DNA of 64,000 bases from contig OZ296652.1 of the NCBI GenBank assembly GCA_965655095.1, positions 42,284,001 to 42,348,000 of the forward strand, written 5' to 3'. Below are positions 29,016-64,000 of the stretch, piece by piece. Position 1 is the stretch's first letter. Every line of letters begins with the position of its first letter. Position numbers and translations under genes: made by a program. The DNA is from Haplodiscus bocki (Eukaryota). The notes below the pieces were generated by a model. That model worked only from the letters and a program-made list of their open reading frames with translations. It had not been told where the DNA came from and did no database searches.

Positions 29016-29209
29016 TTTTTACGGGAAAAAAATGATCAGTCAGTAATACTTGATTTTTTTTCAGAAGGAGAAATCAATTTCGGTCTTTTTAACAGTTTTA
29101 ATCAACAACGAAGGGAAATACTATACTGGAATATTATCATCAATAATTTACAATAATAAAAAATTGTGTCTCCTCTACTTTCATTTCTCCTATTTATACC
29201 TTTTCCTAG

Positions 29210-38720: not shown

Positions 38721-40754
38721 AGAGCCTTGGAAGACTGCAAAGTTTGGAAAGCAAAATCCAAAGTGATTAGGTCATTAGACGGGAAAACTTAATGGATCTC
38801 TTCCAAGAAGTGTTAAACGTTACATAAAATTTAATGATTACATTATCAAACCAGATCGATTTCAAGTTTTTTTTGAATTTTTGACAGTTAAGTAAGACTG
38901 AATAGGAATAACTAAATAAGAATAACTAACAAAAAATGGGATTTTGCGATGTTGCGGCTTTAAAAGCTCTGCTGGAACTGCGTTTCAACGAAATCCCCAA
39001 AAAGCATGTTTCACAGACCGTAAATTACACAGGAGCAGCTGGATGTACAAGATTTCAGACTAAAATTCATAGGAACGTCAACAAATTGCAATTTCCTTTG
39101 AAAGTTGGGCCGAAAACACGCCATTTAAAGCAATCTTCTGCATCTAATTCTATGCCCGACTAGAGCTTCCTCTCTTAAAGTTTCACCTCTCTACCTTCTC
39201 TCTGGCAACGAAACTACTTATGGGTGCTGGCAGTTAAAATCTGTCTAGAGTTACTTTTCATAACTTTCACGAAAGATAACTTTGTGAACAAAAAAAATTT
39301 TGCCGGATTTTTTCGGGTGTAGAACTGTAAGTACTACATCTCAACCAAATGTTGGGTCAGAAAAAAAGTCTCCAAATGAGTGACCCACAGTTTTGCACAG
39401 GTGTTGCCTTTGCCGGTAAAAAAACCAGAAAAATACGTCAAAATTTTCTTCGCTAAACAAACCACGTAGACCCATTCATTAAAAAAAAAACGTCTTTGGC
39501 TAAAATGTAACGAAGATAACTCGGCCAGTCTAACCCAAAAACAAATTCCAGAGAACTCAATATGCTCAGAGATGAAAGTGAACTATTCAGGGGTGCCAGA
39601 AATTTTGCGAACAGAAAATGGAAAAAAAACATTAAACCAAAGGTGCTTGACGCACGGTTCGCAAAACACAAAGGCAACCCCGAAAATTACCATGACGTAC
39701 AAGGAATAACTTAATGCTAGCGCTGATAGAAACACGCTCCGACAGTAGGTCTCAAAATCAACTGATATCTTGTCGAAAAAAATCCAATTTTTTAACGTTT
39801 CTTTGAATTTTGGCAATAAAACAACTTCAGCAAAGCTTCCAATAGAAAAACCAAAGCATCCTGCTCAGTTTTGTGTTTACGTTCAACTACGTCTCCACAA
39901 CGAAATAACAACACTAATCAGCAGAAAGCAAAATGTCAGCCAGGGACAAGGTCGAATTTTTCGGGAGAACTTTCAATTTTTTCAACATTGTTGATCAAAG
40001 GGTACGCTTTAAGAAAGGTCTGCTGTTACCATGGTGGCCCTGTGAATCAATTTTCAAAACGTTTGAGTTGTGACTTCAAAATTTTGAAAAACTGAAATAA
40101 GTAGCAAAACTGACGAAACCGAGAATTCTTTGATTCTTTGACAGTTTTTGCTGACAATTTACGACAACCGGCTCCTTCGTTTTATATAAAAGCATGGCAA
40201 ATTGCTATAGAGTTCCCCCATTTACATGTAAGTAGTAAATATAGACGAGGATTTGAGAATACGCAAAAAACCCACAAAAAATAGCAAATTAAGTGAAAAA
40301 CCGAACATTTTCTCAATCACAATTCGTTCTTTTGCAATTGTATGGATTTTTCCCCAATTTTGCTAGAGTTTTCTGAACATATTGTTTTTGCTACACACGA
40401 ATCAGCACCCATATAACGGTACAAGTTTATTTTAAAAGAAAATTAAAAGTACGCAAAAAAATTAATTATTTCTGTAGATGTAGACTTGGAAGTACGCGAA
40501 AAAACAGCAAAAGAAGTAGGCAAAAAGCCATGGTTTTCCTGAATCACGATCCATTATTTCGAAAAACTACTGTTTTTTAAAAACTTTTTGCTATACTCAA
40601 TTTCATGTAAAACCGTTTTTATGCTCGAGCTTTTTTTACGTACTCTTGATTTTGCAGTGTCCTGGTTGAATGCAAATTTGAATGTAACTGAAAAAACCCT
40701 TAGAAGAGAAGAAGACGTTGTCATCATACTGAGGTCAATGAAAATATAAAAAAA

Positions 40755-43740
40755 ATCATAAAGTAGCATATATTATTTTTCATTTAGTGCTTTTATTTTC
40801 AATTCATTCAGATTAGGTTTTTCATCCCTCTATCGACTTTTTTTCTGACAAATTTCTCAAATTCCGTTTCAAAAACCAGGGCAACCTTCACATCTTCTGA
40901 TTTCTGATGGAACTACAACATCTAGAGAAGTTTTTTTTCAATTCAGTGCAACTTTGCCACTAATTGCTTTACCTCCCAGATCACTCAAAATTTTGTCTAG
41001 GTTCCAACAATTTCTTGGCAACTCTAAAAACCTTAATCATTCAATTACCTCCCATTATTTTATACTCAACAATAGAGGAAGAATGTGATACTTTCAGAGC
41101 TATAATTTATTCATGAAAAATCAGATCATCGCGATAATCATCCTTTTGCCCAACACATTCCCTCTCTTGATGCACTTTTCTTCTACAACGATGATCAAGA
41201 ATTTTTCCCAGTGTTTGAAAATCAGTCTGTGTAATATACAGAATTTGTTTTGAAAGCGTCAATTGAAAATTTGAACACTATCAATTTCTTACTTTCAACT
41301 AAACGAAAGTTACCCGAAACGATGGTTGAGTAACTTTTTCAAAAATATTAAGATTATCAATTCCTTCATCAGGTGCAATTGTTATTTCAGAGTTTCAATG
41401 CAACATTCTCAAAAATTCTAACACTTTATTATCATTTTCTCTTTTCATCCAATCTAAAAATTTACAACAACATTCTGCATCGCACATTATTCTAAATTTG
41501 TGTCCATTTAAACTATCACCAGGCTTTTCGGAGAATTCCCCTTTTAAAATATTTTTTCAAATTTTTGCCCCAAATTTAATATGCAAGAAAAATTAATCAT
41601 TCAATAGGGTCGTTTTTCAAATTCCTCAGACCAAAATTGACGACTTTTATTAATCAAATAAAATGAGAGCGGTAGAGTTAGGACAACATGGTTCTCAAGC
41701 AAAGGGTTCGGGTTTCGAGTTTCTGTCGTGCCAAAAAAATTTACGTTTAAGGCTTAATTTTTTTCGATACCCGAAACTAGTGACACACAAAAGGGTTCCC
41801 CTACCTTTTTTTTCGGCCATGTAAGACAAAAAAAATCGACGCAAAACCTCGATATTCTCCCCTCGCCTTATCCTTAGATTTTTCCACTACCGCAAACTTT
41901 CTCAAACACAGAAGGGTTCCCCTACGAAGATTTTCGGTACAGTGAGACAACAAATTTACTGTAGAAATTAGTGATATTTCCCTCTTACGCATAAAAATTT
42001 CGACACTTGAAGCTTTTTCAGACACAGAAAGGTTCCCCTAAGAAACGATTCGGTACTGTGAGACAAAACAATTTTGACACCAATTCGTGATAACCGCCAC
42101 CTTTCTTATCCCTAAAACGTTTCGACACCGAAAGTTATCTGAAATACAGAAGGGTTCATCTACGCAATTTTTCGGATCTGTGAGAAAAAACTTTCAACAG
42201 AAAATCCCGATACACTTTTGTATAAAGTACAGAAAACAGTGGTGGAATTGATGTTTGTAAAATTGCTTTGAAAAATAAATTCAAAACAGTAGTTTTGTTT
42301 CTAATCGTTTGCAAAAGTTGATCACAATATTTGCAGTTGGGCAAAAAAATGCCGGTGTTAGGTGGCCGTCTTCTTTTTTTCACTTAGTATCCTTCTCAGA
42401 AAATTTCTCAAAGTTTTCGGAAGGAAGTTTTGGGGGGCATTTTCTAAACCTTCCACCTTCACAGAGCCTAAAACAGTTCCCAACAAATTCACAGTTTCTT
42501 GAAGGTCAACGCTCGTTAAAGTATCAATTATATATCCATTTTTCGACCTGTCAACCTCCTAAATTTCATTACTTCCTCTTTAATAGGAGGAAGTTGTAGA
42601 ACTGCAACTTTTGGATTGTGTCATAATTTTTGTGAGAATAACTCTACTTCTTGTAAAAACATTGAGTAACAAAAAAGCTCAACAATCATTTTTAAACTCT
42701 GCAATTGCATATCCATTGGTAATTTTACAATAATTTTATTCACAACCAGCCCTTGCATCTAGTTTACACTAAAAGCATCAAAAACAAACAACACTGCATC
42801 CATTCATAAAACTCAAACTTCTTCGGATATCAAAAAACGACCTAAGTTTTCATTAACAAACTTATTAAAATCATTTTCTTTTCATCCATAGTCCTCAAAC
42901 AGTTCACTATATTCGTCAGTTTCACCTTTTTCCAATTTTTTTTATGACCTCTACTAATGAATAAATTCATATAACTCAACCGTTTCTCTATTAGAATTTA
43001 TTGATCTGGAAAACACATTGAACTAAAATTGATTTAAAGTTATGTTTGAAAGCCGCCACCTTACAACCTTTGAAGCCTTTACGGAAAAAAATCTCAAAAC
43101 TGATCGACTATGGTACCAAATACTTCATATCCGTTACCAGAATCGGCTTCGTTCTCAGAAATTTTCCATTTGGAAGAAAGTAATTTTCCATTTCAAAAGT
43201 TACTTTCCATTTGAGAAAGTAACCTTTGATTCTAGACTTTGTCAATTCTTGTTTCCTCTTACTACATTTAGCGTAGAGGTATGTCAAAAATGAAACCCCA
43301 AACCTAAATTAGGACCCGCTTCATTTCTTTCTTCTTCCCAAGTGTTTCCAGAAATTTCCAGGTCATTCAAACTTTTATCCAATATTCGTTTCTGTAATCC
43401 AAATGTCTTTCCTAGTTTTTCAAGTCAAATTTTCAATGGCTTCATACGACAAACTTTTATCATTTTTAAGGAAAATCCTACTGCTGAAACTTTAATTTCT
43501 GAGTCAATCAGAAAACCAACTTTTCCATGAAATGATTTGGTGGCCAAGCTCAGCACACCTTTACCGCTAAAAATCAAGTTAACCAGTTTTCGTCCTAGTG
43601 GTAATTGTTTCAATGAAAAAAATCATCAAATATCAACAAGTTTTGAAGGGTCAATTTTTATCTGATCTTGTGTACAGATTCTGTTTCCATTTTTGAGAGC
43701 TTCCTAATTTTTCTACGTTAGTTTTAAAAGATCAAACAAA
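40755..43740 (-). pseudogene. Protein-primed family B DNA polymerase (pPolB) pseudogene, interrupted by an insertion
   Basis: Collinear degenerate motifs on the minus strand: LEKLGKTFGLQK (~43400); FFRKGFKGCKVAAF (GG motif, ~43070); FVFDAFSV (motif A DxxSLYP, ~42780); NGYIIDTLTSVDLQE (42496-42540); GDSLNG (motif B NSxYG, 41503-41520); NSVYYTD (motif C YxDTDS, ~41225-41245); C-terminal CEGC. Confidence 0.8.
41521..42360. mobile_element. Non-autonomous insertion splitting polB (tRNA-like head plus ~115-bp repeats)
   Basis: polB homology stops at ~42362 and resumes at 41520. Inside are repeated ACAGAAGGGTTCCCCTA...TTCGGTACTGTGAGACAA units (41785, 41908, 42023, 42147) and a tRNA-like segment at 41665-41735. 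Confidence 0.7.
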
Positions 43741-43749
43741 AAACAAAAC

Positions 43750-44330
43750 AATGCAATTTTCACTATCAGAAGTTTTCAAAAGTACCAACCATCTTTTTAT
43801 TTCTTCACCGGTTACGTCAAATTTCTAATTCATTTTCAATTCAGAAACAGGATAAAAAGAACCGGCACAGAAGTCTGCTCTATTCTTTTGGAGTTTCTTA
43901 GTCAAAAAAATCAATTGTCAGCTGTTTGATACTTTCACATTATTGCAGTCATAAACTAGGGCTTATCTTGCAATTTTACTAAAGGCAGGAAAATTTTCGT
44001 TCTCAAACGGTCTCTGTTTCCTCTATCGTTTCCCTATACTGACTCCATCTGATCTTTAAATAACGCAACAGTCATTACTGTCATCTTAAAAAAATTTAAT
44101 TCTGGGTTTTGATGAATTAGGTAGTATTTTGTTTCCAGTTTAAAAAACCTTTACGAAGTTCTGTAGATATACAAATTGCTTGAGTCTCTGCATTAGTCGT
44201 ACCTTATTTTGTTGTTTAGTTGAAAAACTTATTTATTCACTCAAATAGTTTTTTCCAGTAAGACTAGTTACGCATATCAAAAAACAGAAATTACTGGGTA
44301 GTATGAAAAAAATTCGACCAGAAAAATCGT
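43750..44330 (-). pseudogene. Probable packaging ATPase (A32/FtsK-HerA type) relic
   Basis: CFLICVTSLTGKNYL (degenerate Walker A, ~44250-44295) and TVALFKDQM (Walker B-like, ~44050-44075); position next to polB in a Polinton. Confidence 0.4.
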
Positions 44331-47300
44331 TGAAGTTAGTCGTTTACTTCGCTCGATCTTTTACGATTTTTACTTCGACTATGTTTTTTAGGAAATTGGT
44401 ATGTCGATAAACTACAGGTCACTATCCAAAAAAACTCACGCAAAATTCCCAATTTACGTCATCTTGCCCTAAATACGTCTCATATTCATCAATATGTATA
44501 AAGCTTAAATGTGTATCAAGATTTTGGTTTATTTTTTCTCCAAACTCAATTAGTATAACCTAAAATTTATTTTGAACTTACCTTGATTGCAAATCCTCTG
44601 TTTCCATTTTAACTACTCTCCTATTTCCATAAACTCTTAGAATTTCAACACTGAGTGTTTTTGTTTCTTCTTTTTTATGAAAAAAAACCAAAACTAAAAA
44701 AAAGCATCTTTATCTGCTGCCGCGGGAGTAAACCTCTCAGTTTCATTACAAAAAAACGCCGAGTTTAAAAACTACTTTTTTGTTGATTTATGTCCTTTTC
44801 TCTTTTGAGTCAATAACGTTATCTAGACTAATTTTCTAATCGATTCCATTCTTCCATTTTGAAGAACTTCTGAATTTCTTAATTGTACGAACAAAGTGTC
44901 GTGAAACTGTTCGTCTTCAAGTCTACCACTCACATCAACGTCAAGTGGGCAAATGGTGAAAATTTCGGTTTCATTGAAATCAATACTTTCATCTCCAACA
45001 CCTACTTTAACAACTCTTGAAAATTTTTAGCACCAATTTTAGGATTTGCACCGATGCCAAACATTTTTCAATTTTCTTCATTTTTTTCCATCTTTTCAAC
45101 AATAATTGGAGGTAAACTGATCTTTATTCTCGCAAACTTGACGAATTTCTTCTTGCTAACTCCAAGATAATCAAAAGATTTGTTTGCTTTTTTTTCGGTT
45201 TGTCCTTCTGTTTTTCAGTTTCGAGCGTATGTCTCGTACTAAACTTTTCCTCATCTGGTCAACATTGTGAGCTTCGCTTTTCGCCATCCAGTTGCCTCAT
45301 GAAATCTAACTCAAAGGAACATCTAATTTTTTTTCTCTCGGAGCAACGAAACCAACCTAAATTTATCCTTCGACTCACGGTGGCTCCATGAAACGAGTTC
45401 ACCTCGGAAAATTCGCTTGGCGAATGATCGATAATTTTTGAAAAAATCAAAAATAGAAGAAGGGACTACTGTTTCACAAAAAAAAACAAAACACAAGAAC
45501 ACAAAACGAATTGAGAAGGTTTTTGCTCCACAAGATTATCACAATTAAAAATTGATGAATTGTTGAAAAAAATTAAAGCATATACACCAGCAATTGCTCA
45601 AAAACGATGTGGAGAAATGGGATTACCAACAAAAAAATGACCCAAACTCTGGTGCAGAAAAAAAGGCAAGTTACGCGGTGGTTAAACGAATCAAAACCAA
45701 ATGAACAGTAGTTCCGAAACGACTAACGAAGACAAAAACGTAGTTAGTTAGTCTCCATCTGAGTAAAGAAACGAAGTAGGTGTGTTTTTTGGATGAAAAA
45801 TATTTTGATCTGTTCGGCTGCGCTTGACCAAAAAAGATTTTTTGATGAAACGTAGCGTTGGAAAATGTGTTTTCTCTACTCAAAAAGCAACGCGTAGTGC
45901 GATTCTTGAACAGCATTTGAGTAGCGAAGCATAGTATTCGCGGGAGTTTTTGTTTTATACTATTATTCAAAAAAATGAAAGAAAACTTTGAAAAACCGTT
46001 TTGAACTAATGTTTTCTTGAAGACAAGTTGAGAAAAAAATTAACACAGTAAAAATCGCAGCAATTGTAACCAAAAAAATCAAAACACAGTTCTCTTGAAG
46101 AATGTTTGGTTTTCCTGACAATACTGAAAAACTGAAACAACAACAATTAAAAATTTATCAACGAAACATCGCCGAACAATTTCAGATGATTTTTTCTCTA
46201 ACGGTGGTTCTCTGCAACAGTCGTATCTTATTTTGTTGTTTAACTGAAAACATTATTTATTCAATCAAATAGTTTTTTCCAGTTAGACAACGTACGCGCT
46301 TCACAAAACAGAATTTACTGGGTATTATGAAACAAATTTGACCAGAAATATTGTTAAAGTTAGTCATTTACTTCGATCGATCCTTCACGTTTTTCATTTC
46401 GACCACGTTTTCTGGGAAACTGGCATGTCGATAAATTACTGATCACTATCCAAAAAACTCCCACAAAATTCCTAGTTTTCTACATTTTGCCCTAACTACG
46501 TCTCATATTCATCAATATGTATAAAGCTTAAATGTGTATCAAGATTATGGTTTATTTTTTCTCCATATTCCATGAGTATAACTTAAAATTTATTTTGAAC
46601 TTACCTTGATTGCAAATCCTCTGTTTTCTTTTTAACTACTCCCCTAATTCCTTAAAATCTTAGATTTTCAACATTGAGTGTTTTTGCTTCTTCTTTTTTA
46701 AAAAAAATAACCAAAATTAAAAAACAGCATCTTTATCTGCTGCCGCGGGTGTAAACTTCTCAGTTTCATTACAAAAAAACGCCGAGTTTAAAAATTATTT
46801 TTTTGTTGATTTGTGTCCTTTTCTCACTTGAGTCAATAACGTTATCGAGACTATTTTTCTAATCGATTCCATTCTTCCGTATTGAAGACCTTTTGAGTTT
46901 CTTATTTGTACGAACAAAGTTTCGTGAAACTGTTTGTCTTCAAGTGTACCACCCACATCAACATCAATTGGGCAAAGGGCAAAAATTTCAGTTTCGTTAA
47001 AATCATTACTTTCATCTCCAACACCTACTTTAACAACTCTTGGAAATTTTTAGCACCAATTTTAGGATTTGCACCGATGCCAAACATTTTTCAATTTTCT
47101 TCATTTTTTTTCCATCTTTTCAACAATAATTGGAGGTAAACTGATCTTTATTCTCGCAAACTTGACGAATTTCTTCTTGCTAACTCCAAGATAATCAAAA
47201 AGATTTGTTTGCTTTTTTTTCGGTTTGTCCTTCTGTTTTTCAGTTTCGAGCGTATGTCTCGTACTAAACTTTTCCTCATCTGGTCAACATTGTGAGCTTC

Positions 47301-50300
47301 GTTTTTCGCCATCCAGTTGCCTCATGAAATCTAATTCAAAGGAACATCTAACTTTTTTTCTCTCGGAGCAACGAAACCAACCTAAATTTGTCCTTCGACT
47401 CACGGTGGCTCCATGAAACGATTTCACGTCGGAAAATTCGCTTGGCGAATGATCGATAAACTTTGAAAAAAATCAAAACTGGAAGAAGGGACTTCTCTTT
47501 CACAAAAAAAACCAAACAAAAGAACACAAAACGAACTGAGAAGGTTTTTGCTCCACAAGATTATCACAATTAAACCTGATAAATTGTTGAAAAAAATTAA
47601 AGCAAAAAACCCGCAATTGCTCAAAAAGATGTGGAGAAATGGGACTACCAACAAAAACATGATCCAAACTCTGGTGCAGAAAAAAAGGCAAGTTACGCGG
47701 TGGTTAAACGAATCAAAACCAAATGAACAGTAGTTCCGAAACGACTAACGAAGACAAAAACGTAGTTGGTTAGTCTCCATCTGAGTAAAGAAACGAAGTA
47801 GGTGTGTTTTAAGGATGAAAAATTTTTTGATCTGTTCGGCTGCGCTTGACCAAAAAAGACTATTTTGATGAAACGTAGCTATGGAAAATGTGTTCTCTCT
47901 ACTCAAAAAGCAATGAGTAGTGCGATTCTTGAACAGCATTTGCGTAGCGAAGGACAGTACTGGCGGGAGTATTCGTTTTATATTATTTTTTAAAAAAATA
48001 AAAGTAAACTTTGAAAAGCCGTTTTGAACTAATGTTTTCTTGAAGACAAGTTGAGGAAAAAATTAACACAGTAAAATTCCCAGAAATTGTAACCAAAAAA
48101 ATTAAAACACAGTTTTCTTGGAAACGATTAGGTTTTCCTGACAATACTGAAGAACTGAAACAACACCAATTAAAAATTTATCAATGAACTGCCGCCAAGC
48201 ATTTTCAAATGTTTTTTTCTCTAACGGTGGTTCTCTGCGATAGTCGTACCTTATTTTGTTGTTTAGTTCAAAAAATTATTTATTACCTCAAATTGTTTTT
48301 TCCAGTTAGACAACTTACGCATTTCAAAAAACAGAATTTACTGGGTAGTGTGAAACAACTTTGACCAGAAAAAAAGTTAAAGTTAGTCGTTTACTTCGCT
48401 CGCTCTTTTACGTTTTTCAATTCGACTATGTTTTTTAGGAAACTGGCATGTCGATAAAATACAGATCACTATCCAAAAAAACTCCCACAAAATTCCTAAT
48501 TTTCTACATTTTGCCCCAACTACGTCTCATATTCATCAATATGTATAAAGCTTAAATGTGTATCAAGATTATGGTTTATTTTTTCTCCATATTCCATGAG
48601 TATAACTTAAAATTTATTTTGAACTTACCTTGATTGCAAATCCTCTGTTTTCTTTTTAACTACTCCCCTAATTCCTTAAAATCTTAGATTTTCAACATTG
48701 AGTGTTTTTGCTTCTTCTTTTTTAAAAAAAATAACCAAAATTAAAAAACAGCATCTTTATCTGCTGCCGCGGGTGTAAACTTCTCAGTTTCATTACAAAA
48801 AAACGCCGAGTTTAAAAATTATTTTTTTGTTGATTTGTGTCCTTTTCTCACTTGAGTCAATAACGTTATCGAGACTATTTTTCTAATCGATTCCATTCTT
48901 CCGTATTGAAGACCTTTTGAGTTTCTTATTTGTACGAACAAAGTTTCGTGAAACTGTTTGTCTTCAAGTGTACCACCCACATCAACATCAATTGGGCAAA
49001 GGGCAAAAATTTCAGTTTCGTTAAAATCATTACTTTCATCTCCAACACCTACTTTAACAACTCTTGGAAATTTTTAGCACCAATTTTAGGATTTGCACCG
49101 ATGCCAAACATTTTTCATTTTTCTTAATTTTTTTTCCATCTTTCCAACAATAATTGGAGGTAAACTGATCTTTATTCTCGCAAACTTGACGAATTTCTTT
49201 TTGCTAACTCCAAGATAATCAAAAAGATTTACTTGCTTTGTTTTCGATTTCTCCTTCTGTTTTTCAGTTTCGTGCGTATGTCTCGTAGTATACTTTTCCT
49301 CACCTGGTCAACATTGTGAGCTTCGTTTTTCGCCATCCAGTTGCCTCATCAAATCTAATTCAAAGGAACATCTCATTTTTTGTCTCTCGGAGGAACAAAA
49401 CCAAACTAAATATGTCCATCGACTCACCGTGGCTCCAAGAAACGAGTTCACCTCGGAATGTTCGCTTGGCGATTGATCGGTAATTTAGGAAAAAATTCGG
49501 AAAAAGAAGAAGGGACTTCTGTTTCAGAAGAAAACAAAACACAAGAACACAAATCGAACTCAGAAGGCTTTTGCTCCACAAGTTTATCACAATTAAAAAC
49601 TGATAAATTGTTGTAAAAAAATGAAAGCATATACACCCGCAATTGCTCAAAAAAGATGTGGAGAAGTGGAAATACCAACAAAAACTTGATGCAAAATCTG
49701 GTGCAGAAAAGAAAGAGGCAAGTTACGCGTTGGTTAAACGAATCAAAACCAATTGATCAGTAGTTCTGAAACGACTAACGAAGACAAAAACGTAGTTAGT
49801 TAATCCCCATCTGAGTATACAAACAATTTGGGTGTGTTTTGTGGATGAAATAAAATTTGATCCGTTCGGCTGCGCTTGACCAAAAAAGACTATTTTGATG
49901 AAACATAATAATGGAAAACGTGTTCTCTCTAATCAAAAAGCAATGAGTAGTGCGGTTCTTGAACAGCATTTGCGTAGCGAAGCACAGTATGGGCGGGAGT
50001 TTTTGTCTTAAACTGTTTTCCAAAAAAATGAAAGAAAACTTTGAAAAACCGTTTTGAACCAAATGTTCTCTTGAAGACAAGATGAGAATAAAACTCACAC
50101 AATAAAATTCCCAGCAATTGTAACCAAAAAAATCAAAACACAGTTTTCCTGGAGGCGATTGGTTTTTTCCTGACAAATTTTGAGAACTGAAACAACACCA
50201 ATTGAAAAATTATCAACGAATTTTCGCCACGGAATTTCAGATGATTTTTTCTCTAACGGTAGTTATCTGCAACAGTCGTACCTCAATTTGTTGTTTAGTT

Positions 50301-53300
50301 GAAAACATTACCTAATAACTCAAAAAGTTTTTACCAGTTATACAACGTACGCGCTTCACAAAACAGAATTTACATGGTAGTATGAATCAACTTTGACCAG
50401 AAAAATCGTTAAAGTTAGTAGTTTACTTCGCTCGATCTTTTACGTTTTTTTCTTCGACTATGTTTTTTAGGAACGTGGCATGTCGATAAATTACAGGTCA
50501 CTATCCGAAAAGACTCCCGCAAAAATCCTAATTTTCTTCATTTTGGCGTAACTGCGTCTGATAATCATCAATATGTACAAAGCCTAAATGAGTATCAAGA
50601 TTACGGTTTATTTCTTCTCCGTACTCCATGAGTATAAACTAAAATTTATTTTGAACTTACCTTGAATGCAAATCCTCTGTTTATCTTTTAACTACTCGCC
50701 TAAATCCATAAAATCTTAGTTTTTCAACATTGAGTGTTTTTGCAACTTGTTTTTGATGAAAAAACAACCAAAATTAGAAAACACCATCTTCATCTGCTGC
50801 CGCGGTAGTAAACCTCTCAGTTTCGTTACAAAAAAACGCCGAGTTTAAACACTACTTTTTTGTTGATTTCTGTCCATTTCTCACTTGAGTCAATAGCGTT
50901 ATCGAGACTGTTTTTCTAATCGATTCCATTCTAACGTTTTGAAGATCTTTTGAATTTCCTATTTGTAAGAACAAAGTTTCCTGCATCTGTTGGTCTTCAA
51001 GTCTCCCACTCACATCAACATCAATCGGCAAATGGAGAATATTTCGCGTTCGTTAAAAACACTACTTTCATATCCAACACCTACTTTAACAACTCTTGAA
51101 ATTTTTTAGCGACAATTTTGCGATGGGCACCGATGCCAAACTTTTTTCTTTTTTCTTCAATTGTTTTCCATCTTTCTAACAATAATTGGAGATAAGCTGA
51201 TCTTTACTTTCGCCAAATTCACAAATTTTTTTCTGCTAACTCCAGGATAATCATAAAGACTCTTTTGTTCTGTTTTCGATTTTTGCTTCTGTCTTTCAGT
51301 TTCGAGCGTATGTGTCGTACTAAACTTTTCCTCACCTGGTCAACATTGTGAGCTTCGTTTTTCGCTATCCAATTGCTTCATAAAAAATCTAGTTCAAAAG
51401 AATATCTCATTTTTTATCTCTCGGAGGAACAAAACCAATCTGACTTTGTGCTTCGACTCACGGTGGCTCCAAGAAACGAGTTCACCTCGGTAAATTCGCT
51501 TGGCGAATGATCGGTAATTCAGGAAAAAACTCAGAAATAGAAGAAGGGACTTCTGTTTCAGAAGAAAACAAAACACAAGAACACAAATCCAACTCAAAAG
51601 GTTTTTGCTCCAAAAATTTATCACAATTAAAAATTGATAAAATGTTTTAAGAAAATGAGAGCGTATACACCCCCTATTGCTCAAGAGGATTGGGAGAATG
51701 GGAATACCAACGAAAACATGATGCAAAAGCTGGTGCAGAAAAGAAAGAGGCAAGTTACGCGGTGGTTAAACGAATCAAAACCAAATGAACAGTAGTTCCG
51801 AAACGACTAACGAAGACAAAAACGTAGTTAGTTAATTTCCATAATCTCCATCTGAGTATAGAAAGGAATTGGGTGAGTTTTATGGATGAAATTTATTTTA
51901 ATCCGTTCGGATGCGCTTGACCAAAAAAGAATATTTTGATGAAACGTAGTTATGAAAAATGTGTTCTCTCTAATCAAAAAGCAATGAGTAGTGCGATTCT
52001 TGAACAGCATTTGCGTAGCCAAGCACAGTATTGGCGGGAGTTTTTGTTTTATAAAATTTTTCAAAAAAAAATGAAAGAAAACTTTGAAAAGCCGTTTTGA
52101 AGCAAATGTTTTCTTGAAGACAAGATGAGAAAAATCTCACACAGTAAAATCCCCAGCAATTGTAACCAAAAACTCAAAACACTGTTTTCTTGGGGGCGAT
52201 TGGTTTTTCCTGACAAAACTTGAGAACTGAAGCAACACCAATTGAAAAATTATCAACGAAATTTCGCCACGGAATTTCAGATGATTTTTTCTCTAACGGT
52301 GGTTATCTGCAACAGTCGTACCTCAATTTGTTGTGTAGTTGAAAACATTACCTAATTACTCAAAAAGTTTTTACCAGTTATACAACGTACGCGCTTCACA
52401 AAACAGAATTTACAGGGTAGTATGAAACAACTTTAATCAGAAAAAACGCTAAAGTTAGTCGTTTACTTCGCTCGATTTTTTAGGTTTTTCTTCGACTATG
52501 TTTTTTAGGAAACTGGCATGTCGATAAAATACAGCTCACTATCCAAAAAAACTCCCGCAATAATCCTAATTTTCTTCAATTTGCCCTAACTACGTCTGAT
52601 AATCATCAATATGTACAAAGCCTAAATGAGTATCAAGATTACGGTTTATTTCTTCTCCATACTCCATGAGTATAAACTAAAATTTATTTTGAACTTACCT
52701 TGAATGCAAATCCTCTGTTTATCTTTTAACTACTCGCCTAAATCCATAAAATCTTAGTTTTTCAACATTGAGTGTTTTTGCAACTTGTTTTTGATGAAAA
52801 AACAAACAAAATTAAAAAACACCATCTTCATCTGCTGCCGCGGTAGTAAACCTCTCAGTTTCGTTACAAAAAAACGCCGAGTTTAAAAACTACTTTTTTG
52901 TTGATTTCTGTCCATTTCTCACTTGAGTCAATAGCGTTATCGAGACTGTTTTTCTAATCGATTCCATTCTAACGTTTTGAAGATCTTTTGAATTTCCTAT
53001 TTGTAAGAACAAAGTTTCCTGCATCTGTTGGTCTTCAAGTCTCCCACTCACATCAACATCAATCGGCAAATGGAGAATATTTCGCGTTCGTTAAAAACAC
53101 TTCTTTCATCTCCAACACCTACTTTAACAACTCTTGAAATTTTTTAGCGACAATTTTACGATGGGCACCGATGCCAAACTTTTTTCTTTTTTCTTCAATT
53201 TTTTTCCATCTTTCTAACAATAATTGGAGATAAGCTGATCTTTACTTTCGCCAAAGTCACAAATTTTTTTCTGCTAACTCCAGGATAATCATAAAGACTC

Positions 53301-56300
53301 TTTTGTTCTGTTTTCGATTTTTGCTTCTGTCTTTCAGTTTCGAGCGTATGTGTCGTACTAAACTTTTCCTCACCTGGTCAACATTGTGAGCTTCGTTTTT
53401 CGCTATCCAATTGCTTCATAAAAAATCTAGTTCAAAAGAAGATCTCATTTTTTATCTCTCGGAGGAACAAAACCAACCTGACTTTGTGCTTCGACTCACG
53501 GTGGCTCCAAGAAACGAGTTCACCTCGGTAAATTCGCTTGGCGAATGATCGGTAATTCAGGAAAAAACTCAGAAATAGAAGAAGGGACTTCTGTTTCAGA
53601 AGAAAACAAAACACAAGAACACAAATCGAACTCAAAAGGTTTTTGCTCCAAAAATTTATCACAAATAAAAATTGATAAAATGTTTTAAGAAAATGAAAGC
53701 GTATACACCCCCTATTGCTCAAGAGGATTGGGAGAATGGGAATACCAACGAAAACATGATGCAAAAGCTGGTGCAGAAAAGAAAGAGGCAAGTTACGCGG
53801 TGGTTAAACGAATCAAAACCAAATGAACAGTAGTTCCGAAACGACTAACGAAGACAAAAACGTAGTTAGTCAATTTCCATAATCTCCATCTGAGTATAGA
53901 AAGGAATTGGGTGAGTTTTATGGATGAAATTTATTTTGATCCGTTCGGATGCGCTTGACCAAAAAAGACTATTTTGATGAAACGTAGTTATGAAAAATGT
54001 GTTCTCTCTAATCAAAAAGCAATGAGTAGTGCGATTCTTGAACAGCATTTGCGTAGCCAAGCACAGTATTGGCGGGAGTATTTGTTTTATAAAATTTTTC
54101 AAAAAAAAATGAAAGAAAACTTTGAAAAGCCGTTTTGAAGCAAATGTTTTCTTGAAGACAAGATGAGAAAAAACTCACACAGTAAAATCCCCAGCAATTG
54201 TAACCAAAAACTCAAAACACTGTTTTCTTGGAGGCGATTGGTTTTTCCTGACAAAACTTGAGAACTGAAGCAACACCAATAGAAAAATTATCAACGAAAT
54301 TTCGCAACGGAATTTCAGATGATTTTTTCTCTAACGGTAGTTATCTGCAACAATCGTACCTCAATTTGTTGTGTAGTTGAAAACATTACCTAATTACTCA
54401 AAAAGTTTTTACCAGTTATACAACGTACGCGCTTCACAAAACAGAATTTACAGGGTAGTATGAAACAACTTTAATCAGAAAAAACGTTAAAGTTAGTCGT
54501 TTACTTCGCTCGATTTTTTAGGTTTTTTACTTCGACTATGTTTTTTAGGAAACTGGCATGTCGATAAAATACAGCTCACTATCCAAAAAAACTCCCGCAA
54601 TAATCCTAATTTTCTTCAATTTGCCCTAACTACGTCTGATAATCATCAATATGTACAAAGCCTAAATGAGTATCAAGATTACGGTTTATTTCTTCTCCAT
54701 ACTCCATGAGTATAAACTAAAATTTATTTTGAACTTACCTTGAATGCAAATCCTCTGTTTATCTTTTAACTACTCGCCTAAATCCATAAAATCTTAGTTT
54801 TTCAACATTGAGTGTTTTTGCAACTTGTTTTTGATGAAAAAACAACCAAAAATAAAAAACACCATCTTCATCTGCTGCCGCGGTAGTAAACCTCTCAGTT
54901 TCGTTACAAAAAAACGCCGAGTTTAAAAACTACTTTTTTGTTGATTTCTGTCCATTTCTCACTTGAGTCAATAGCGTTATCGAGACTGTTTTTCTAATCG
55001 ATTCCATTCTAACGTTTTGAAGATCTTTTGAATTTCCTATTTGTAAGAACAAAGTTTCCTGCATCTGTTGGTCTTCAAGTCTCCCACTCACATCAACATC
55101 AATCGGCAAATGGAGAATATTTCGCGTTCGTTAAAAACACTACTTTCATCTCCAACACCTACTTTAACAACTCTTGAAATTTTTTAGCGACAATTTTACG
55201 ATGGGCACCGATGCCAAACTTTTTTCTTTTTTCTTCAATTTTTTTCCATCTTTCTAACAATGATTGGAGATAAGCTGATCTTTACTTTCGCCAAATTCAC
55301 AAACTTCTTTTTGCTAACTCCAGGATAATCATAAAGACTCTTTTAATCTGTTTTCGATTTTTGCTTCTGTTTTTCAGTTCAAGCGTATGTCTCGTACTAA
55401 ATTCTTCCTCACCTGGTCAACATTGTGAGCTTCGTTTTTCTTTATCCAGTTGCTTCATAAAAAATCTAATTCAAAAGGATATCTCATTTTTTATCTCTCG
55501 GAGGAACGAAACCAACCTGACTTTGTGCTTCGACTCACGGTGGCTCCAAGAAACGAGTTCACCTCGGTAAATTCGCTTGGCGAAAGATCGGTAATTCAGG
55601 AAAAAACTCAGAAATAGAAGAAGGGACTTCTTTTTCAGAAGAAAACAAAACACAAGAACACAAATCGAACTCAAAAGGTTTTTGCTCCAAAAATTTATCA
55701 CAATTAAAAATTGATAAAATGTGTTAAGAAAATGAAAGCGTATACACCCCCTATTGCTCAAGAGGATTGGAAGAATGGGAATACCAACGAAAACATGATG
55801 CAAAAGCTGGTGCAGAAAAGAAAGAGGCAAGTTACGCGGTGGTTAAACGAATCAAAACCAAATGAACAGTAGTTCCGAAACGACTAACGAAGACAAAAAC
55901 GTAGTTAGTTAATTTCCATAATCTCCATCTGAGCATAGAAAGGAATTGGGTGAGTTTTATGGATGAAATTTATTTTGATCCGTTCGGATGCGCTTGACCA
56001 AAAAATACTATTTTGATGAAACGTAGTTATGAAAAATGTGTTCTCTCTAATCAAAAAGCAATGAGTAGTGCGATTCTTGAACAGCATTTGCGTAGCGAAG
56101 CACAGTTTTGGCAGGAGTTTTTGTTTTGTACTATTCTTCAAAAAAATGAAAGAAAACTTTGAAAAACCATTTTGAACTAATGTTTTCTTGAAAACAACAT
56201 GAGAAAAAACTTCACACAAAAAAATTCCCAGCAATTGTAAAAAAAATCAAAACACAGTTTTCTTGGAGACGATTGGGTTTTCCTGACAATACTGAAGAAC

Positions 56301-59300
56301 TGAAACAACTCCAATTAAAAAATTATCAACGAATTATCGCCAAGCAATTTCAGATGTTTTTTTCTCTAACGCTGGTTCTCTGCAACAGTCGTATCTTTTT
56401 TTGTTGTTTAGTTGAAAACATTACCTAATTACTCAAAAAAAATTTTCCAGTTAGACAACGTACGCGCTTCACAAAACAGAATTTACTGGGTAGTATGAAA
56501 CAAATTTGACCAGAAATATTGTTAAAGTTAGTCGTTTACTTCGGTCGATCTTTCACGTTCATCACTTCGACTATGCTTCTTAGGAAACTGGCATGTCGAT
56601 AAATTACAGATCACTATACGAAAAAACTCCCGCAAAATTCCTAATTTTTTTCATTTTGCCCTAACTACGTCTGATAATCATCAATATGTACAAAGTTTAA
56701 ATGAGTATCAAGATTACGGTTTATTTCTTCTCCATACTCCATGAGTATAATCTAAAATTTATTTTGAACTTACCTTGAATGCAAATCCTCTGTTTTCTTT
56801 TTAACTACTCGCCTAAATCCATAAAATCTTAGATTTTCAACATTGAGTGTTTTTGCAACTTCTTTTTGATAAAAAAAACAATCAAAATTAGAAAACATCA
56901 TCTTCATCTGCTGCGCGGTAGTAAATCTCTCAGTTTCAATACAAAAAAACGCCCAGTTTTTAAAACTACTTTTTTGTTGATTTCTGTCCATTTCTCACTT
57001 GAGTCAATAGCGTTATCGAGACTGTTTTTCTAATCGATTCCATTCTAACGTTTTGAAGATCTTTTGAATTTCCTATTTGTAAGAACAAAGTTTCCTGCAT
57101 CTTTTGGTCTTCAAGTCTCACACTCACATCAACATCAATCGGCAAATGGAGAATAATTCGCGTTTGTTAAAATCAATACTTTCATCTCCAACACCTACTT
57201 TTACAACTCTTGAAAAATTTTAGCACCAATTTTACGATATGCTCCGATGCCAAACTTTTTTCATTTTTCTTCAATTTTTTTCCATCTTTCTAACAATGAC
57301 TGGAGATAAGCTGATCTTTTTTTTTCGCCAAATTCACAAACTTCTTTTTGCTAACTCCAGGATAATCATAAAGACTCTTTTAATCTGTTTTCGATTTTTG
57401 CTTCTGTTTTTCAGTTCAAGCGTATGTCTCGTACTAAATTTTTCCTCACCTGGTCAACATTGTGAGCTTCGTTTTTCGTTATCCAGTTGCCTCATGAAAT
57501 CTAACTCAAAGGAACATCTAATTTTTTTTCTCTCGGAGCAACGAAACCAACCTAAATTTATCCTTCGACTCACGGTGCTTCCAAGAAACGACTTCACCTC
57601 GGTAAATTCGCTTGGCGAAAGATCGGTAATTCAGGAAAAAACTCAGAAATAGAGGAAGGGACTTCTTTTTCAGAAGAAAACAAAACACAAGAACACAAAT
57701 CGAACTCAAAAGGTTTTTGCTCCAAAAATTTATCACAATTAAAAATTGATAAAAAGTTTTAAGAAAATGAAAGCGTATACACCCCCTATTGCTCAAGAGG
57801 ATTGGGAGAATGGGAATACCAACGAAAACATGATGCAAAAGCTGGTGCAGAAAAGAAAGAGGCAAGTTACGCGGTGGTTAAACGAATCAAAACCAAATGA
57901 ACAGTAGTTCCGAAACGACTAACGAAGACAAAAACGTAGTTAGTTAATTTCCATAATCTCCATCTGAGTATAGAAAGGAATTGGGTGAATTTTATGGATG
58001 AAATTTATTTTGATCCGTTCGGATGCGCTTGACCAAAAAAACTATTTTGATGAAACGTAGTTATGAAAAATGTGTTCTCTCTAATCAAAAAGCAATGAGT
58101 AGTGCGATTCTTGAACAGCATTTGCGTAGCGAAGCACAGTTTTGGCAGGAGTTTTTGTTTTGTACTATTCTTCAAAAAAATGAAAGAAAACTTTGAAAAA
58201 CCATTTTGAACTAATGTTTTCTTGAAAACAACATGAGAAAAAACTTCACACAAAAAAATTCCCAGCAATTGTAAAAAAAAACAGAACACAGTTTTCTTGG
58301 AGACGATTGGGTTTTCCTGACAATACTGAAGAACTGAAACAACAACAATTAAAAAATTATCAACGAATTATCGCCAAGCAATTTCAGATGATTTTTTCTC
58401 TAACGCTGGTTCTCTGCAACAGTCGTATCTTTTTTTGTTGTTTAGTTGAAAACATTACCTAATTACTCAAAAAAATTTTTCCAGTTAGACAACGTACGCG
58501 CTTCACAAAACAGAATTTACTGGGTAGTATGAAACAAATTTGACCAGAAATATTGTTAAAGTTAGTCGTTTACTTCGGTCGATCTTTCACGTTTTTCACT
58601 TCGACTATGCTTCTTAGGAAACTGGCATGTCGATAAATTACAAATCACTATCCGAAAAAACTCCCGCAAAATTCCTAATTTTTTTCATTTTGCCGTAACT
58701 ACGTCTGATAATCATCAATATGTACAAAGTTTAAATGAGTATCAAGATTACGGTTTATTTCTTCTCCATACTCCATGAGTATAATCTAAATTTTATTTTG
58801 AACTTACCTTGAATGCAAATCCTCTGTTTTCTTTTTAACTACTCGCCTAAATCCATAAAATCTTAGATTTTCAACATTGAGTGTTTTTGCAACTTCTTTT
58901 TGATAAAAAAACAACCAAAATTAGAAAACATCATCTTCATCTGCTGCGCGGTAGTAAATCTCTCAGTTTCAATACAAAAAAACGCCCAGTTTTTAAAACT
59001 ACTTTTTTGTTGATTTCTGTCCATTTCTCACTTGAGTCAATAGCGTTATCGAGACTGTTTTTCTAATCGATTCCATTCTAACGTTTTGAAATCTTTTGAA
59101 TTTCCTATTTGTAAGAACAAAGTTTCCTGCATTTGCTCGTCTTCAAGTCTCCCACTCTCATCAACATCAAGTGGGCAAATGGAGAATAATTCGCGTTTGT
59201 TAAAACCAATACTTTCATCTCCAACACCTACTTTTACAACGCTTGAAAATTTTTAGCACCAATTTTACGATATGCTCCGATGCCAAACTTTTTTCATTTT

Positions 59301-62300
59301 TCTTCAATTTTTTTCCATCTTTCTAACAATGACTGGAGATAAGCTGATCTTTTTTTTTCGCCAAATTCACAAACTTCTTTTTGCTAACTCCAGGATAATC
59401 ATAAAGACTCTTTTAATCTGTTTTCGATTTTTGCTTCTGTTTTTCAGTTTCAAGCGTATGTCTCGTACTAAATTTTTCCTCACCTGGTCAACATTGTGAG
59501 CTTCGTTTTTCGTTATCCAGTTGCTTCATAAAAAATCTAATTCAAAAGGATATCTCATTTTTTATCTCTCGGAGGAACGAAACCAACCTAAATTTGAGCT
59601 TCGACTCACGGTGGCTCCAAAAAACGAGTTCACCTCGGAAAATTCGCTTGGCGAACGATCGGTAATTTAGGAAAAAACTCAGAAATAGAAGAAGGGACTT
59701 CTGTTTCAGAAGAAAACAAAACACAAGAACACAAATCGAACTCAAAAGGTTTTTGCTCCACAAATTTATCACCATTAAAAATTGATAAAATGTTGTAAAA
59801 AAATGAAAGCGTATACACCCCCTATTGCTCAAGAGGATTGGGAGAATGGGAACTCCAACGAAAACATGATCCAAACGCTGTTGCAGAATAGAAAGAGGCA
59901 AGTTACTCAGTGGTTAAACGAATCAAAACCAAATGAACAGTAGTTCCGAAACGACTAACGAAGACAAAAACGTAGTTAGTTATTCTCCATAATCTCCATC
60001 TGAGTATAGAAACGAATTGGGTGAGTTTTATGGATGAAAATTATTTTGATCCGTTCGGGTGCGCTTGAACAAAAGAGACTTTTTTGATGAAACGTAGTTA
60101 TGAAAAATGTGTTCTCTGTAATCAAAAAGCAATGAGTAGTGCGATTCTTGAACAGCATTTGCGTAGCGAAGGACAGTTTCGGCAGGAGTTTTTGTTTTAT
60201 AAAATTTTTCAAAAAAAAATGAAAGAAAACTTTGAAAAGCCGTTTTGAAGCAAATGTTTTCTTGAAGACAAGATGAGAAAAAACTCACACAGTAAAATCC
60301 CCAGCAATTGTAACCAAAAACTCAAAACACTGTTTTCTTGGGGGCGATTGGTTTTTCCTGACAAAACTTGAGAACTGAAGCAACACCAATTGAAAAATTA
60401 TCAACGAAATTTCGCCACGGAATATCAGATGATTTTTTCTCCAAAGCTGGTTCTCTGCAACAGTCGTATCTTATTTTGTTGTTTAGTTGAAAAAATTATT
60501 TATTAACCCAAATTGTTTTTTCTAGTTAGACAACGTACGCACTTCACAAAACAGAATTTACTGGGTAGTGTGAAACAACTTTGACCAGAAAAAACGTTAG
60601 AGATAGTCGTTTACTTCGCTCGCTCTTTTACGTTTTTTACTTCGATTATGTTTTTCAAGAACGTGGCATGTCGATAAATTACAGGTCACTATCCGAAGAA
60701 ACTACCGCAAAATTCCTAATTTTCTTCATTTTGCCGTAACTATGTCTGATAATCATCAATATGTACAAAGCTTAAATGAGTATCAAGATTACGGTTTATT
60801 TCTTCTCCATTCTCCATGAGTATAATCTAAAATTTATTTTGAACTTACCTTGAATGCAAATCCTCTGTTTTCCTTTTAACTACTCGCCTAAATCCATATA
60901 ATCTTAGATTTTCAACATTGAGTGTTTTTGCAACTTCTTTTTGATAAAAAAACAACCTAAACTAAGAAACACCATCTTTATCAGCTGCCGCGGGAGTAAA
61001 CCTCTCAGTTTCATTACAGAAAAACGCCGAGTTTAAAAACTACTTTTTTGTTGATTTCTGTCCATTTCTCACTTGAGTCAATAGCGTTATCGAGACTGTT
61101 TTTCTAATCGATTCCATTCCAACGTTTTGAAGATCTTTTGAATTTCCTATTTGTAAGAACAATGTTTCCTGCATCTGTTCGTCTTCAAGTTTCCCACTCA
61201 CATCAACATCAAGTGGGTAAATGGAGAATATTTCACGTTTGTTAAAATCAATACTTTCATCTCCAACACCTACTTTTACAACTCTTGAAAATTTTTAGCA
61301 CCAATTTTACGATGTGCACCGATGCCAAATTTTTTCATTTTTCTTCAATTTTTTTCCATCATTCTAACAATGATTGGAGATAAGCTGATCTTTATTTTCG
61401 CCAAATTCACAAATTTTTTTTGCTAACTCCAGGATAATAATAAAGACTCTTTTATTCTGTTTTCGATTTTTGCTTCTGTTTTTCAGTTTCAAGCGTATTT
61501 CTCGTACTAAACTTTTCCTCACCTGGTCAACATTGTGAGCTTCGTTTTTCGCTATCCAGTTGCTTCATAAAAAATCTAATTCAAAAGAATATCTCATTTT
61601 TTATTTCTCGGAGGAACGAAACCAACCTAAATTTGTCCTTCGACTCACGGTGCTTCCAAGAAACGACTTCACCTCGGAAAATTCGCTTGGCGAATGATCG
61701 GTAATTTAGGAAAAAACTCAGAAATAGAAGAAGGGACTTCTGTTTCAGAAGAAAACAAAACACAAGAACACAAATCGAACTCAGAAGGTTTTTGCTCCAC
61801 AAATTTATCACAATTAAAAATTGATAAAATGTTGTAAAAAAATGAAAGCGTATACACCCCCTATTGCTCAAGAGGATTGGGAGAATGGGAATACCAACGA
61901 AAACATGATCCAAAAGCTGGTGCAGAAAAGAAAGAGGCAAGTTACGCGGTGGTTAAACGAATCAAAACCAAATGAACAGTAGTTCCGAAACGACTAACGA
62001 AGACAAAAACGTAGTTAGTTAATTTCCATAATCTCCATCTGAGTATAGAAACGAATTGGGTGAATTTTATGGATGAAAATTATTTTGATCCGTTCGGGTG
62101 CGCTTGAACAAAGGAGACTTTTTTGATGAAACGTAGTAATGGAAATTGTGTTCTCTCTAATCAAAAAGCAATGAGTAGTGCGATTCTTGAACAGCATTTG
62201 CGTAGCGAAGGACAGTTTCGGCAGGAGTTTTTGTTTTGTACTATTATTCAAAAAAATGAAAGAAAACTTTGAAACACCGTTTTGAACTAATGTTTTCTTG

Positions 62301-64000
62301 AAAACAACATGAGAAAAAGTTTTACACAAAAAAAATCCCAGCAATTGTAATTAAAAAATCAAAACACAGTTTTCTTGGAGACGATTGGGTTTTCCTGACA
62401 ATACTGAAGAACTGAAACAACACCAATTAAAAAATTATCAACGAAATATCGCCAAGCAATTTCAGATGATTTTTTCTCTAACGCTGGTTCTCTCCAACAG
62501 TCGTATCTTATTTTCGGTTGTTTAGTTGAAAAAATTATTTTTTAACTCAAATTGTTTTTTCCATTTAGACAACTTACGCATTTCAAAAAACAGAATTTAC
62601 TGGGTAGTTTCAAACAACTTTGACCAGAAAAAACGTTAGAGTTAGTCGTTTACTTCGCTCGCTCTTTTACGTTTTTTACTTCGACTATGTTTTTTAAGAA
62701 CGTGGCATGTCGATAAATTACAGGTCACTATCCGAAGAAACTCCCGCAAAATTCCTATTTTTCTTCATTTTGCCGTAACTATGTCTGATAATCATCAATA
62801 TGTACAAAGCTTAAATGAGTATCAAGATTACGGTTTATTTCTTATCCATACACCATGAGTATAATCTAAAATATATTTTGAACTTACCTTGAATGCAAAT
62901 CCTCTGTTTTCCTTTTAACTACTCGCCTAAATCCATATAATCTTAGATTTTCAAAATTGAGTGTTTTTGCAACTTCTTTTTGATAAAAAAACAACCAAAA
63001 CTAAAAATTGCCATCTTTATCTGCTGCCGCGGGAGTAAACCTCTCAGTTTCATTACAAAAAAAGGCCGAGTTTAAAAACTACTTTTTTGATGATTTCTGT
63101 CCATTTCTCACTTGAGTCAATAGCGTTATCGAGACTGTTTTTCTAATCGATTCCATTCTAACGTTTTGAAGATCTTTTGAATTTCCTATTTGTAAGAACA
63201 AAATTTCCTGCATCTGTTCGCCTTCAAGTCTCCCACTCACATCAACATCAAGTGGGCAAACGGAGAACATTTCGCGTTTGTTAAAATCAATACTTTCATC
63301 TCCAACGTCTAATTTTACACCTCTTGAAAATTTTTAGCACCAATTTTACGATGTGCACCGATGCCAAACTTTTTTCATTTTTCTTCAATTTTTTTCTATC
63401 TTTCTAACAATAATTGTAGATAAGCTGATCTTTACTTTCGCCAAATTCACAAACCTCTTTTTGCTAACTCCAGGATAATCATTAAGACTCTTTTGTTTTG
63501 TTTTCGATTTTTGCTTCTGTTTTTCAGTTTCAAGCGTATGTCTCGAACTAAACCTTTCCTCACCTGGTCAACATTGTGAGCTTCGTTTTTCGCTATCCAG
63601 TTGCTTCATAAATAATCTAATTCAAAAGAATATCTCATTTTTTATCTCTCGGAGGAACGAAACCAACCTAAATTTGTGCTTCGACTCACGGTGGCTCCAA
63701 AAAACGAGTTCACCTCGGAAAATTCGCTTGGCGAATGATCGGTAATTTAGGAAAAAACTCAGAAATAGAAGAAGGGATTTCTGTTTCAGAAGAAAACAAA
63801 ACACAAGAACACAGATCGAACTCAAAAGGTTTTTGCTCCACAAATTTATCACAATTAAAAATTGATAAAATGTTGTAAAAAAATGAAAGCGTATACACCC
63901 CCTATTGCTCAAGAGGATTGGGAGAATGGGAATACCAACGAAAACATGATCCAAAAGCTGGTGCAGAAAAGGAAAAGGCAAGTTACGCGGTGGTTAAACG
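44185..64000 (+). repeat. Tandem array of ~2.03-kb Polinton-derived units (9 complete plus 1 partial; extends beyond the window)
   Basis: Homologous unit starts at 44185, 46209, 48232, 50264, 52304, 54342, 56377, 58411, 60452 and 62489 (periods 2023-2041 bp), head-to-tail with no spacers. Confidence 0.97.
45690..46020 (+). pseudogene. Adenain-like cysteine protease pseudogene (one per complete array unit; unit 1 shown)
   Basis: VSLHLSKETK*VCFLDEKYFDLFGCA*PKK in unit 1; NLHLSIETNWVSFMDENYFDPFGCA at 59991 in unit 8; downstream KDSFGRSFCF. This matches the Polinton/adenovirus protease pattern N...G.HW....YFD(P/S)FG....C, with the catalytic His and Cys lost. Confidence 0.7.

Follow-up and report, generated by a model that had tools for sequence, protein, structure and literature searches.

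In this study, we explored a 64,000-nt stretch of DNA from Haplodiscus bocki (the window) and found that its right part is a macrosatellite, a long head-to-tail array of kilobase units that covers at least 19.8 kb and evolves in concert (Table 1). The unit period is 2023–2041 nt across the array, the pairwise identity of copies ranges from 86.3 to 97.8%, and the array is open on its right side, where the window end cuts the last unit. The original prediction of a ~2.03-kb macrosatellite was thus borne out by ten unit starts with regular periods, as was its abrupt start at 44185 beside single-copy sequence, with nothing to the left of this position matching the unit end. No fainter copies of the unit were found in 1–44184 (best E 0.01, over 31–53 nt). 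The unit encodes nothing now, as its copies share stops and frameshifts. The low stop density of the unit is ordinary for this genome (fewest stops per 200 codons, 1–5 in the copies vs 1–7 in 38 host pieces). We consider it probable, at roughly 0.62, that the array is a neutral macrosatellite which arose by tandem copying, in place, of the interior of a dead mobile element and subsequently grew by exchange.

Table 1. Coordinates of the array, its units and the adjoining flank within the window.
Feature	Position	Strand	Remarks
Candidate target-site half and terminus	40225–40236	+	CATGTA 40225–40230, AGTAGT 40231–40236
Single-copy AT-rich flank	40527–44184	-	strand skew as in left part of unit
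Four ~120-nt direct repeats	41785–42214	none	higher G+C; probably inserted later into the flank
Tandem array (macrosatellite)	44185–64000	none	9 full units and 1 partial (tenth)
Unit starts	44185, 46209, 48232, 50264, 52304, 54342, 56377, 58411, 60452, 62489		
Copies 1–3, edge, most diverged	44185–50263	none	mean 11.0–12.2% from other copies
Copies 4–10, more homogenised, mosaic	50264–64000	none	mean 8.0–9.0% from other copies
Unit left ~1.2 kb (copy 1)	44185–45387	-	purine-rich on minus strand; weak coding-like structure, no homology found
Unit right ~0.8 kb (copy 1)	45388–46208	+	purine-rich on plus strand; includes stretch read as protease

Divergence between copies grows with their distance apart (r = 0.61, reached by 1 of 20,000 permutations), and the copies at the array edge are the most diverged. 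The copies are mosaic, with the nearest-neighbour copy switching along the unit, and four-gamete incompatibility affects 167 of 1397 site pairs less than 50 nt apart vs 3577 of 7241 pairs more than 1000 nt apart. Identical tracts of 392 nt and 356 nt are shared by copies 2 and 3 and by copies 5 and 6, respectively, while 61 of the 63 indels between adjacent copies measure 1–2 nt. Codon periodicity is almost absent from the variable sites overall (0.019 vs 0.014), and there may be a slight 3-periodicity at unit offsets 1250–1800 (0.053 vs 0.015), which would count against a purely neutral array. Distance-graded identity, diverged edges and mosaic copies are what unequal exchange and conversion would produce, and from this observed pattern we infer that recombination, by unequal crossing-over and gene conversion, keeps the copies alike. 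The two long identical tracts between neighbours could also be chimeric joins, as they would be if the array were an assembly artefact, but identity between copies never exceeds 97.8%, copies further apart differ more, and each copy has substitutions and indels of its own. We give this explanation next to no weight.

Birth of the array in place, as originally proposed, is supported by composition. G+C falls from 0.38 to 0.33 at a change point near 40040, and a minus-strand purine-rich block runs from ~40.5 kb to 45.4 kb across the array edge, the cumulative purine skew peaking at 40527 and reaching its minimum at 45387. GC skew is -0.16 to -0.27 in eight 1-kb windows from 40.8 kb, vs -0.11 in the most negative of the 79 windows of 1–40200. 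The strand skew switches near unit offset 1200 in all nine full copies. A skew block crossing the array edge agrees with an origin within a longer element, AT-rich and decayed, whereas the Polinton identity given to this element in the original prediction rests on motif resemblance. It should be noted, as a counterpoint to birth in place, that the continuity across the array edge is one of composition only. The coding-structure score dips at 43.8–44.7 kb (4–5 bits vs a null mean of 5.2), in a test with a weak control, the shuffle control being exceeded on both strands. We propose a model in which a 2.03-kb piece inside a mobile element, AT-rich and dead by then, would have been duplicated in tandem where it lay, after which the array may have grown while unequal crossing-over and gene conversion acted on neighbouring copies to homogenise them. 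This piece would span the meeting point of a minus-strand and a plus-strand coding-like block and, judging from the skew, might include the beginnings of two dead genes in divergent orientation.

None of the searches that we ran identified the parent family. Polinton is the leading named candidate, not demonstrated, and we rate it at somewhat below even odds. The fullest version of this assignment, in which the element has its terminus at 40231, the flank holds a pPolB gene, the array edge cuts through an ATPase and every unit contains a dead protease of the adenain type, appears improbable to us. CATGTA and AGTAGT are indeed present at the proposed terminus, which the G+C change point precedes by ~190 nt, and section 7 of PMC8097293 names (AGT)2 as the most frequent end motif of Mavericks, but the motif is not diagnostic, as the window has 62 occurrences of AGTAGT, 20 to the left of 40231. 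Nowhere in the window is there an inverted partner for the 300 nt that follow 40231. The plus strand of the window lacks ACTACT followed by CATGTA, and the right end of the element would lie outside. The flank resembles in composition the sense strand of AT-rich pPolB genes, and divergent gene modules, as the skew may reflect, are described for one toad Maverick group in the same article, yet the predicted pPolB remained at background in every scored test. A frameshift-aware profile of intact Polinton polymerases gave 17.6 bits for the flank vs a null mean of 18.0, and the flank scored under the null mean in all four settings, while a natural broken control reached 118 bits (90–118 across settings). 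In three of six settings with sharp polymerase profiles, the exonuclease block near 43225–42944 received the best path, a point in favour of a polymerase, although 23–30 of 30 nulls reached the flank score; control L005 obtained 90–219 bits over the polymerase profile runs, sharp profiles included. The flank stood out in none of 24 banded settings, and pPolB motifs at 0–1 mismatch and a G.HW motif are absent from it. A permuted-model polymerase test (1/45, 8/45) was not counted, as shuffles (44/45, 45/45) and the opposite strand scored equal or higher. Homolog searches yielded no relatives of two flank frames among 6943 and 4074 candidates, and a phi29-seeded search for long polymerases none among 729.

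The other predicted genes fared similarly, scores staying at background for protease and ATPase as for pPolB. For the protease, the claim of lesions common to the copies held, with four plus-strand stop triplets in the frame so read in 9/9 full copies, but its identity was not confirmed: 65–116 of 122 nulls reached each copy's score against the one intact reference, a protein that Pfam likewise fails to recognise. The motif YFDPFG, picked after viewing the sequence, occurs in five of the nine full copies (copies 5–9, e.g. at 53932) and nowhere in 1–40230, a weak hint at most. The ATPase at the array junction was the least supported assignment and is not borne out: exact Walker A is absent from every frame of flank and array, and 10–71 of 72 nulls reached the score of the single reference on both strands. 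An ATPase C-terminal half suggested by eye at the start of the unit, on its plus strand, was rejected with a background score. Across 21 references, integrase and capsid included, four regions and two strands, none of 168 scores exceeded the null maximum of its reference, although integrase and capsid genes could lie beyond the window. Since the scored tests lose power past ~25–30% decay with frequent frameshifts, which a more decayed relic would escape, and since protease and ATPase were each represented by one reference, the Polinton label is unproven rather than refuted.

A different gene layout within a Polinton parent would read the minus-strand block from 45.4 to ~40.8 kb as one long pPolB gene, the unit then holding the pPolB 5' (terminal-protein/vOTU) end and the protease instead of the ATPase. 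The block measures ~4.3 kb without the insertion, compared with 1277–1626 codons for intact reference pPolB frames, pPolB is described in PMC11161782 as starting with TP and vOTU domains, and two of the three best HMM domains of the window are matches of copies 2 and 3, on the minus strand, to the N-terminal part of the model (E 0.45 and 0.78). However, the N-terminal model scored at background in 10/10 copies (26–44 of 64 nulls reach it), pairwise alignments gave no convincing match, and AlphaFold returned an uninformative fold for one copy-2 frame (pLDDT 31). We therefore regard this layout as rather unlikely.

Broader searches likewise pointed to no family. Pfam returned nothing relevant for 18 whole frames of 40200–48400 (best E 0.039) or for 30 short frames and 19 stretches, nor did PHROGs and NCBIfam for 11 window frames; a PDB sequence search with two unit frames gave 0 matches, and tblastn of one unit frame against phages gave none. 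Among 1.84 billion proteins searched, the sole matches were copy 4 of the window itself and an ankyrin protein, which also weighs against the full set of Polinton genes. A C2 domain suggested by ESM Atlas for 84 aa read on the minus strand (score 0.91, recognition 2040, 141–142 of 256 shared features) was set aside as weak and without Pfam or PDB support. The unit begins with TC and, by eye only, shows no evident CTRR end of the kind relevant to a Helitron origin. No Rfam family was found over 39000–50500 (best E 0.72) and no tRNA gene in the window, results that give no support to an array of structural RNA genes (rDNA, 5S, tRNA, snRNA). A bacterial promoter scan, a method not applicable to a eukaryote, gave chance level.

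Retention of the array as a small-RNA source or heterochromatin seed against its parent element is very improbable in our estimation, and no result obtained here lends it support. TE relics populate piRNA clusters (PMC12628747), and, should an old two-way promoter still be active, the skew switch near offset 1200 would lead head-to-tail copies to yield overlapping transcripts of both strands. Against this, methylation has left no trace of decay (CpG o/e 1.14; CpG transitions 67/642 vs GpC 46/531), diversity is nearly flat along the unit (0.07–0.12), the Rfam result offers no family, and the unit matches no intact element found, leaving its RNAs without evident target. Slimmer still is the chance that a Polinton segment, amplified in place with the parent arm attached and centred on a two-way promoter, yields overlapping transcripts of both strands, and small RNAs through which related virus-like elements are silenced, as an inherited antiviral memory that arose with the satellite.

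A neutral macrosatellite born in place remains our preferred reading, and the array is a clear case of kilobase units that evolve through local exchange and still adjoin what is probably an arm of their parent, which makes it useful for the study of satellite birth. Its significance would rise if the parent proved to be a Polinton with its remaining part on the other side of the array, and far more so if small RNAs directed at active relatives came from the array. Satellites that derive from TE segments and expand by unequal exchange are described in PMC12628747 and 10.1101/158386, and, as far as these accounts extend, the array resembles them as a head-to-tail, locally homogenised non-coding segment beside single-copy decayed sequence, but differs in its 2-kb unit, in having no parent family assigned and in showing only its left edge in the window. 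With Polintons/Mavericks as portrayed in PMC8097293 and 10.1101/2023.08.22.554363 it shares AT-richness, AGTAGT near a composition boundary and possibly divergent gene blocks, whereas neither a TIR pair nor a TSD pair, an integrase or a capsid is present in the window, and pPolB, ATPase and protease gave no scored match there. LmiSat34-299 of Locusta migratoria is reported as homologous to Polinton coding sequence (PMC4935994); it has a 299-nt monomer with a Repbase match, in contrast to the 2-kb unit without demonstrated match seen here. CgiSat52 of Crassostrea gigas comes closer in size, with a 1656-nt monomer that carries the Repbase label DNA/Polinton and lies on one chromosome as 17 and 6 monomers in two assemblies, although the non-Helitron similarities are fragmentary according to its authors (PMC8268682). 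With Polinton-similar satellites thus already reported in locust and oyster, the array constitutes no new class.

Self-comparison of the window revealed a head-to-tail repeat spanning 44185 to the window end, with ten unit starts and a period of 2023–2041 nt, which bears out the ~2-kb array of the original prediction. Copies are 86.3–97.8% identical pairwise; adjacent copies (nine pairs) average 93.9%, and the two copies farthest apart share 87.2%. Compared with every unit, the 60 nt preceding 44185 contained no match to a unit end, and no older unit copy was found in 1–44184.

Repeat features of the window
Feature	Position	Spacing	Remarks
Array unit starts	44185, 46209, 48232, 50264, 52304, 54342, 56377, 58411, 60452, 62489		
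Four ~120-nt direct repeats	41785-42214	121, 116, 122	G+C near 0.39
Dispersed repeat family	1348-2097, 15795-16569, 29176-29429		both orientations, 68-81% alike
Decayed local direct-repeat cluster	10750-14748	255-2129 nt	72-84% alike
Short decayed tandem duplications	17234-17478, 27725-28290	83 and 369 nt	

Distance between copies correlates with divergence (r = 0.61; 1 of 20000 permutations as high), copies 1–3 being the most diverged at 11.0–12.2% from the rest, versus 8.0–9.0% for the others. The nearest neighbour of a copy switches along the unit, identical tracts of 392 nt (copies 2/3) and 356 nt (copies 5/6) were observed, and incompatible site pairs rise from 12% at <50 nt separation to 49% at >1000 nt (239 informative sites, nine full copies). 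By established theory, such a divergence gradient with mosaic copies is as expected under unequal crossing-over and conversion (see also 10.1101/158386). The mosaic, distance-graded pattern argues against assembly duplication. Since 61 of 63 indels between adjacent copies are 1–2 nt long and codon periodicity is almost absent from variable sites overall, coding selection does not act on the copies. The array behaves as an ordinary macrosatellite. On the plus strand, the frame previously read as a protease has four stop triplets common to all nine full copies; consequently, any gene in this frame was broken before amplification or homogenised after it. A 364-residue unit frame, searched against 1.84 billion proteins, had two matches, an ankyrin protein and the protein-library entry P0001. 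The latter, a predicted 157-aa protein, is identical to copy 4 at 51882–52352 under table 4 and is an artefact of TGA translated as Trp.

We propose a model in which the interior of a dead AT-rich element would have been tandemly amplified in place, leaving an element arm as the flank. Judging by composition, birth of the array inside a dead element is likely (probability about 0.6). Going rightward, G+C falls from 0.38 to 0.33 at about 40040, and the cumulative purine skew has its maximum at 40527 and its minimum at 45387, so that a single minus-strand purine-rich block runs across the array edge; within units, the skew flips at offset 1156–1236 in every full copy. GC skew is -0.16 to -0.27 in eight 1-kb windows from 40.8 kb, and its lowest value among 79 windows of 1–40200 is -0.11. 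The minus-strand codon-structure score is modestly elevated, reaching 16.6 bits against a null distribution (n = 264) with a 95th percentile of 12.9 and a maximum of 17.7, but it drops at 43.8–44.7 kb. The ~120-nt repeats in the flank had no match in 1–40230 at E 0.01 and look like a later insertion.

Polinton parentage of the array is a more tentative reading, which we lean slightly against. Weak hints in its favour are YFDPFG, a pattern picked after viewing the sequence (5/9 full copies, 0 matches in 1–40230), a best path that fell on the exonuclease block near 43225 in 3/6 sharper-profile settings at a score below null, and the flank composition, which resembles AT-rich polymerase genes. 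Maverick sequence makes up 4.5% of one acoel genome (PMC6451197), which would raise the prior for a Polinton. Were the parent a Polinton, one long polymerase would account for the 4.3-kb minus-strand block no less well than a polymerase together with an ATPase, reference polymerases measuring 1277–1626 codons. The protein-primed family B polymerase originally placed in the flank was not borne out: the frameshift-aware score of the flank was 17.6 bits (null mean 18.0, maximum 22.6, n = 30) versus 118 bits for L005, a natural broken polymerase kept out of the profile, and the flank lay under the null mean in 4/4 frameshift-aware settings. None of 852 window frames had a significant domain by a profile of 12 polymerase frames (best E 0.45), block chains likewise found no polymerase in the flank, 23–30 of 30 nulls reached the flank score with sharper profiles, targeted sub-models gave only background, and with banded scoring fixed at the boundary of the skew 0/24 settings stood out. 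Estimated analytically from three held-out polymerases, the expected score is 30–75 bits at 25% decay with one frameshift per 15 codons and 9–19 bits, within null, at 30% decay.

The references came from a polymerase motif scan of genome contigs, which yielded 11 loci (L004–L014) whose Polinton-like genes are intact (DNA_pol_B_2, rve integrase, Pox_A32 ATPase, DJR capsid); a reference-locus protease matches ASFV S273R (E 5.4e-4). These animal-type pPolB, integrase, ATPase and capsid genes lie on contigs filed under bacterial MAGs, and their presence in GTDB bins is probably host or viral contamination. L012 resembles most of an element and also carries a phospholipase A2-like domain, and L013 has a TBP-like gene. 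Against one reference each, the putative protease of the original prediction scored as background in 9/9 copies (the intact reference itself being missed by Pfam) and the ATPase in 10/10 targets. The ATPase reading is unsupported, with the exact Walker A motif absent from flank and array. Across 21 references, 0/168 scores exceeded their own null maximum; Pfam, PHROGs, NCBIfam and PDB scans returned nothing relevant, and searches from two flank frames found no homologs. Maverick architecture and end motifs are described in PMC8097293, 10.1101/2023.08.22.554363 and PMC11161782; in the window, AGTAGT has 62 matches and the flank start has no inverted partner. A minus-strand 84-codon open stretch (61043–61294), repeated in several copies, has weak C2-domain neighbours in the ESM Atlas; a C2 domain was rejected, with no Pfam or PDB support.

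CpG o/e is 1.14, hence without depletion, diversity along the unit is nearly flat, and no RNA gene was found in the array. The skew flip in each unit might leave room for overlapping opposite transcripts, and this, like any function for the array, is speculative. Near the dispersed family, ORF-like stretches at 1687–2076 and 28611–29018 are similar to each other by eye, the latter matching no Pfam family. Both presumably resemble acoel flatworm repeat-derived protein-set sequences, a likeness that the Atlas did not confirm.

None of the literature matches listed describes amplification of a multi-gene Polinton segment alongside the parent arm, and this detail may therefore be undescribed. Satellites derived from TE segments are reviewed in PMC12628747, and in Triatoma satellite arrays with adjoining Polinton-like sequence have been noted (PMC5983683). 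Nothing of relevance was seen in PMC12694884 or PMC12910113. Direct precedents appear to be a satellite of the locust with homology to the coding sequence of a Polinton (PMC4935994) and an oyster satellite of 1656 nt, labelled DNA/Polinton and confined to one chromosome (PMC8268682).
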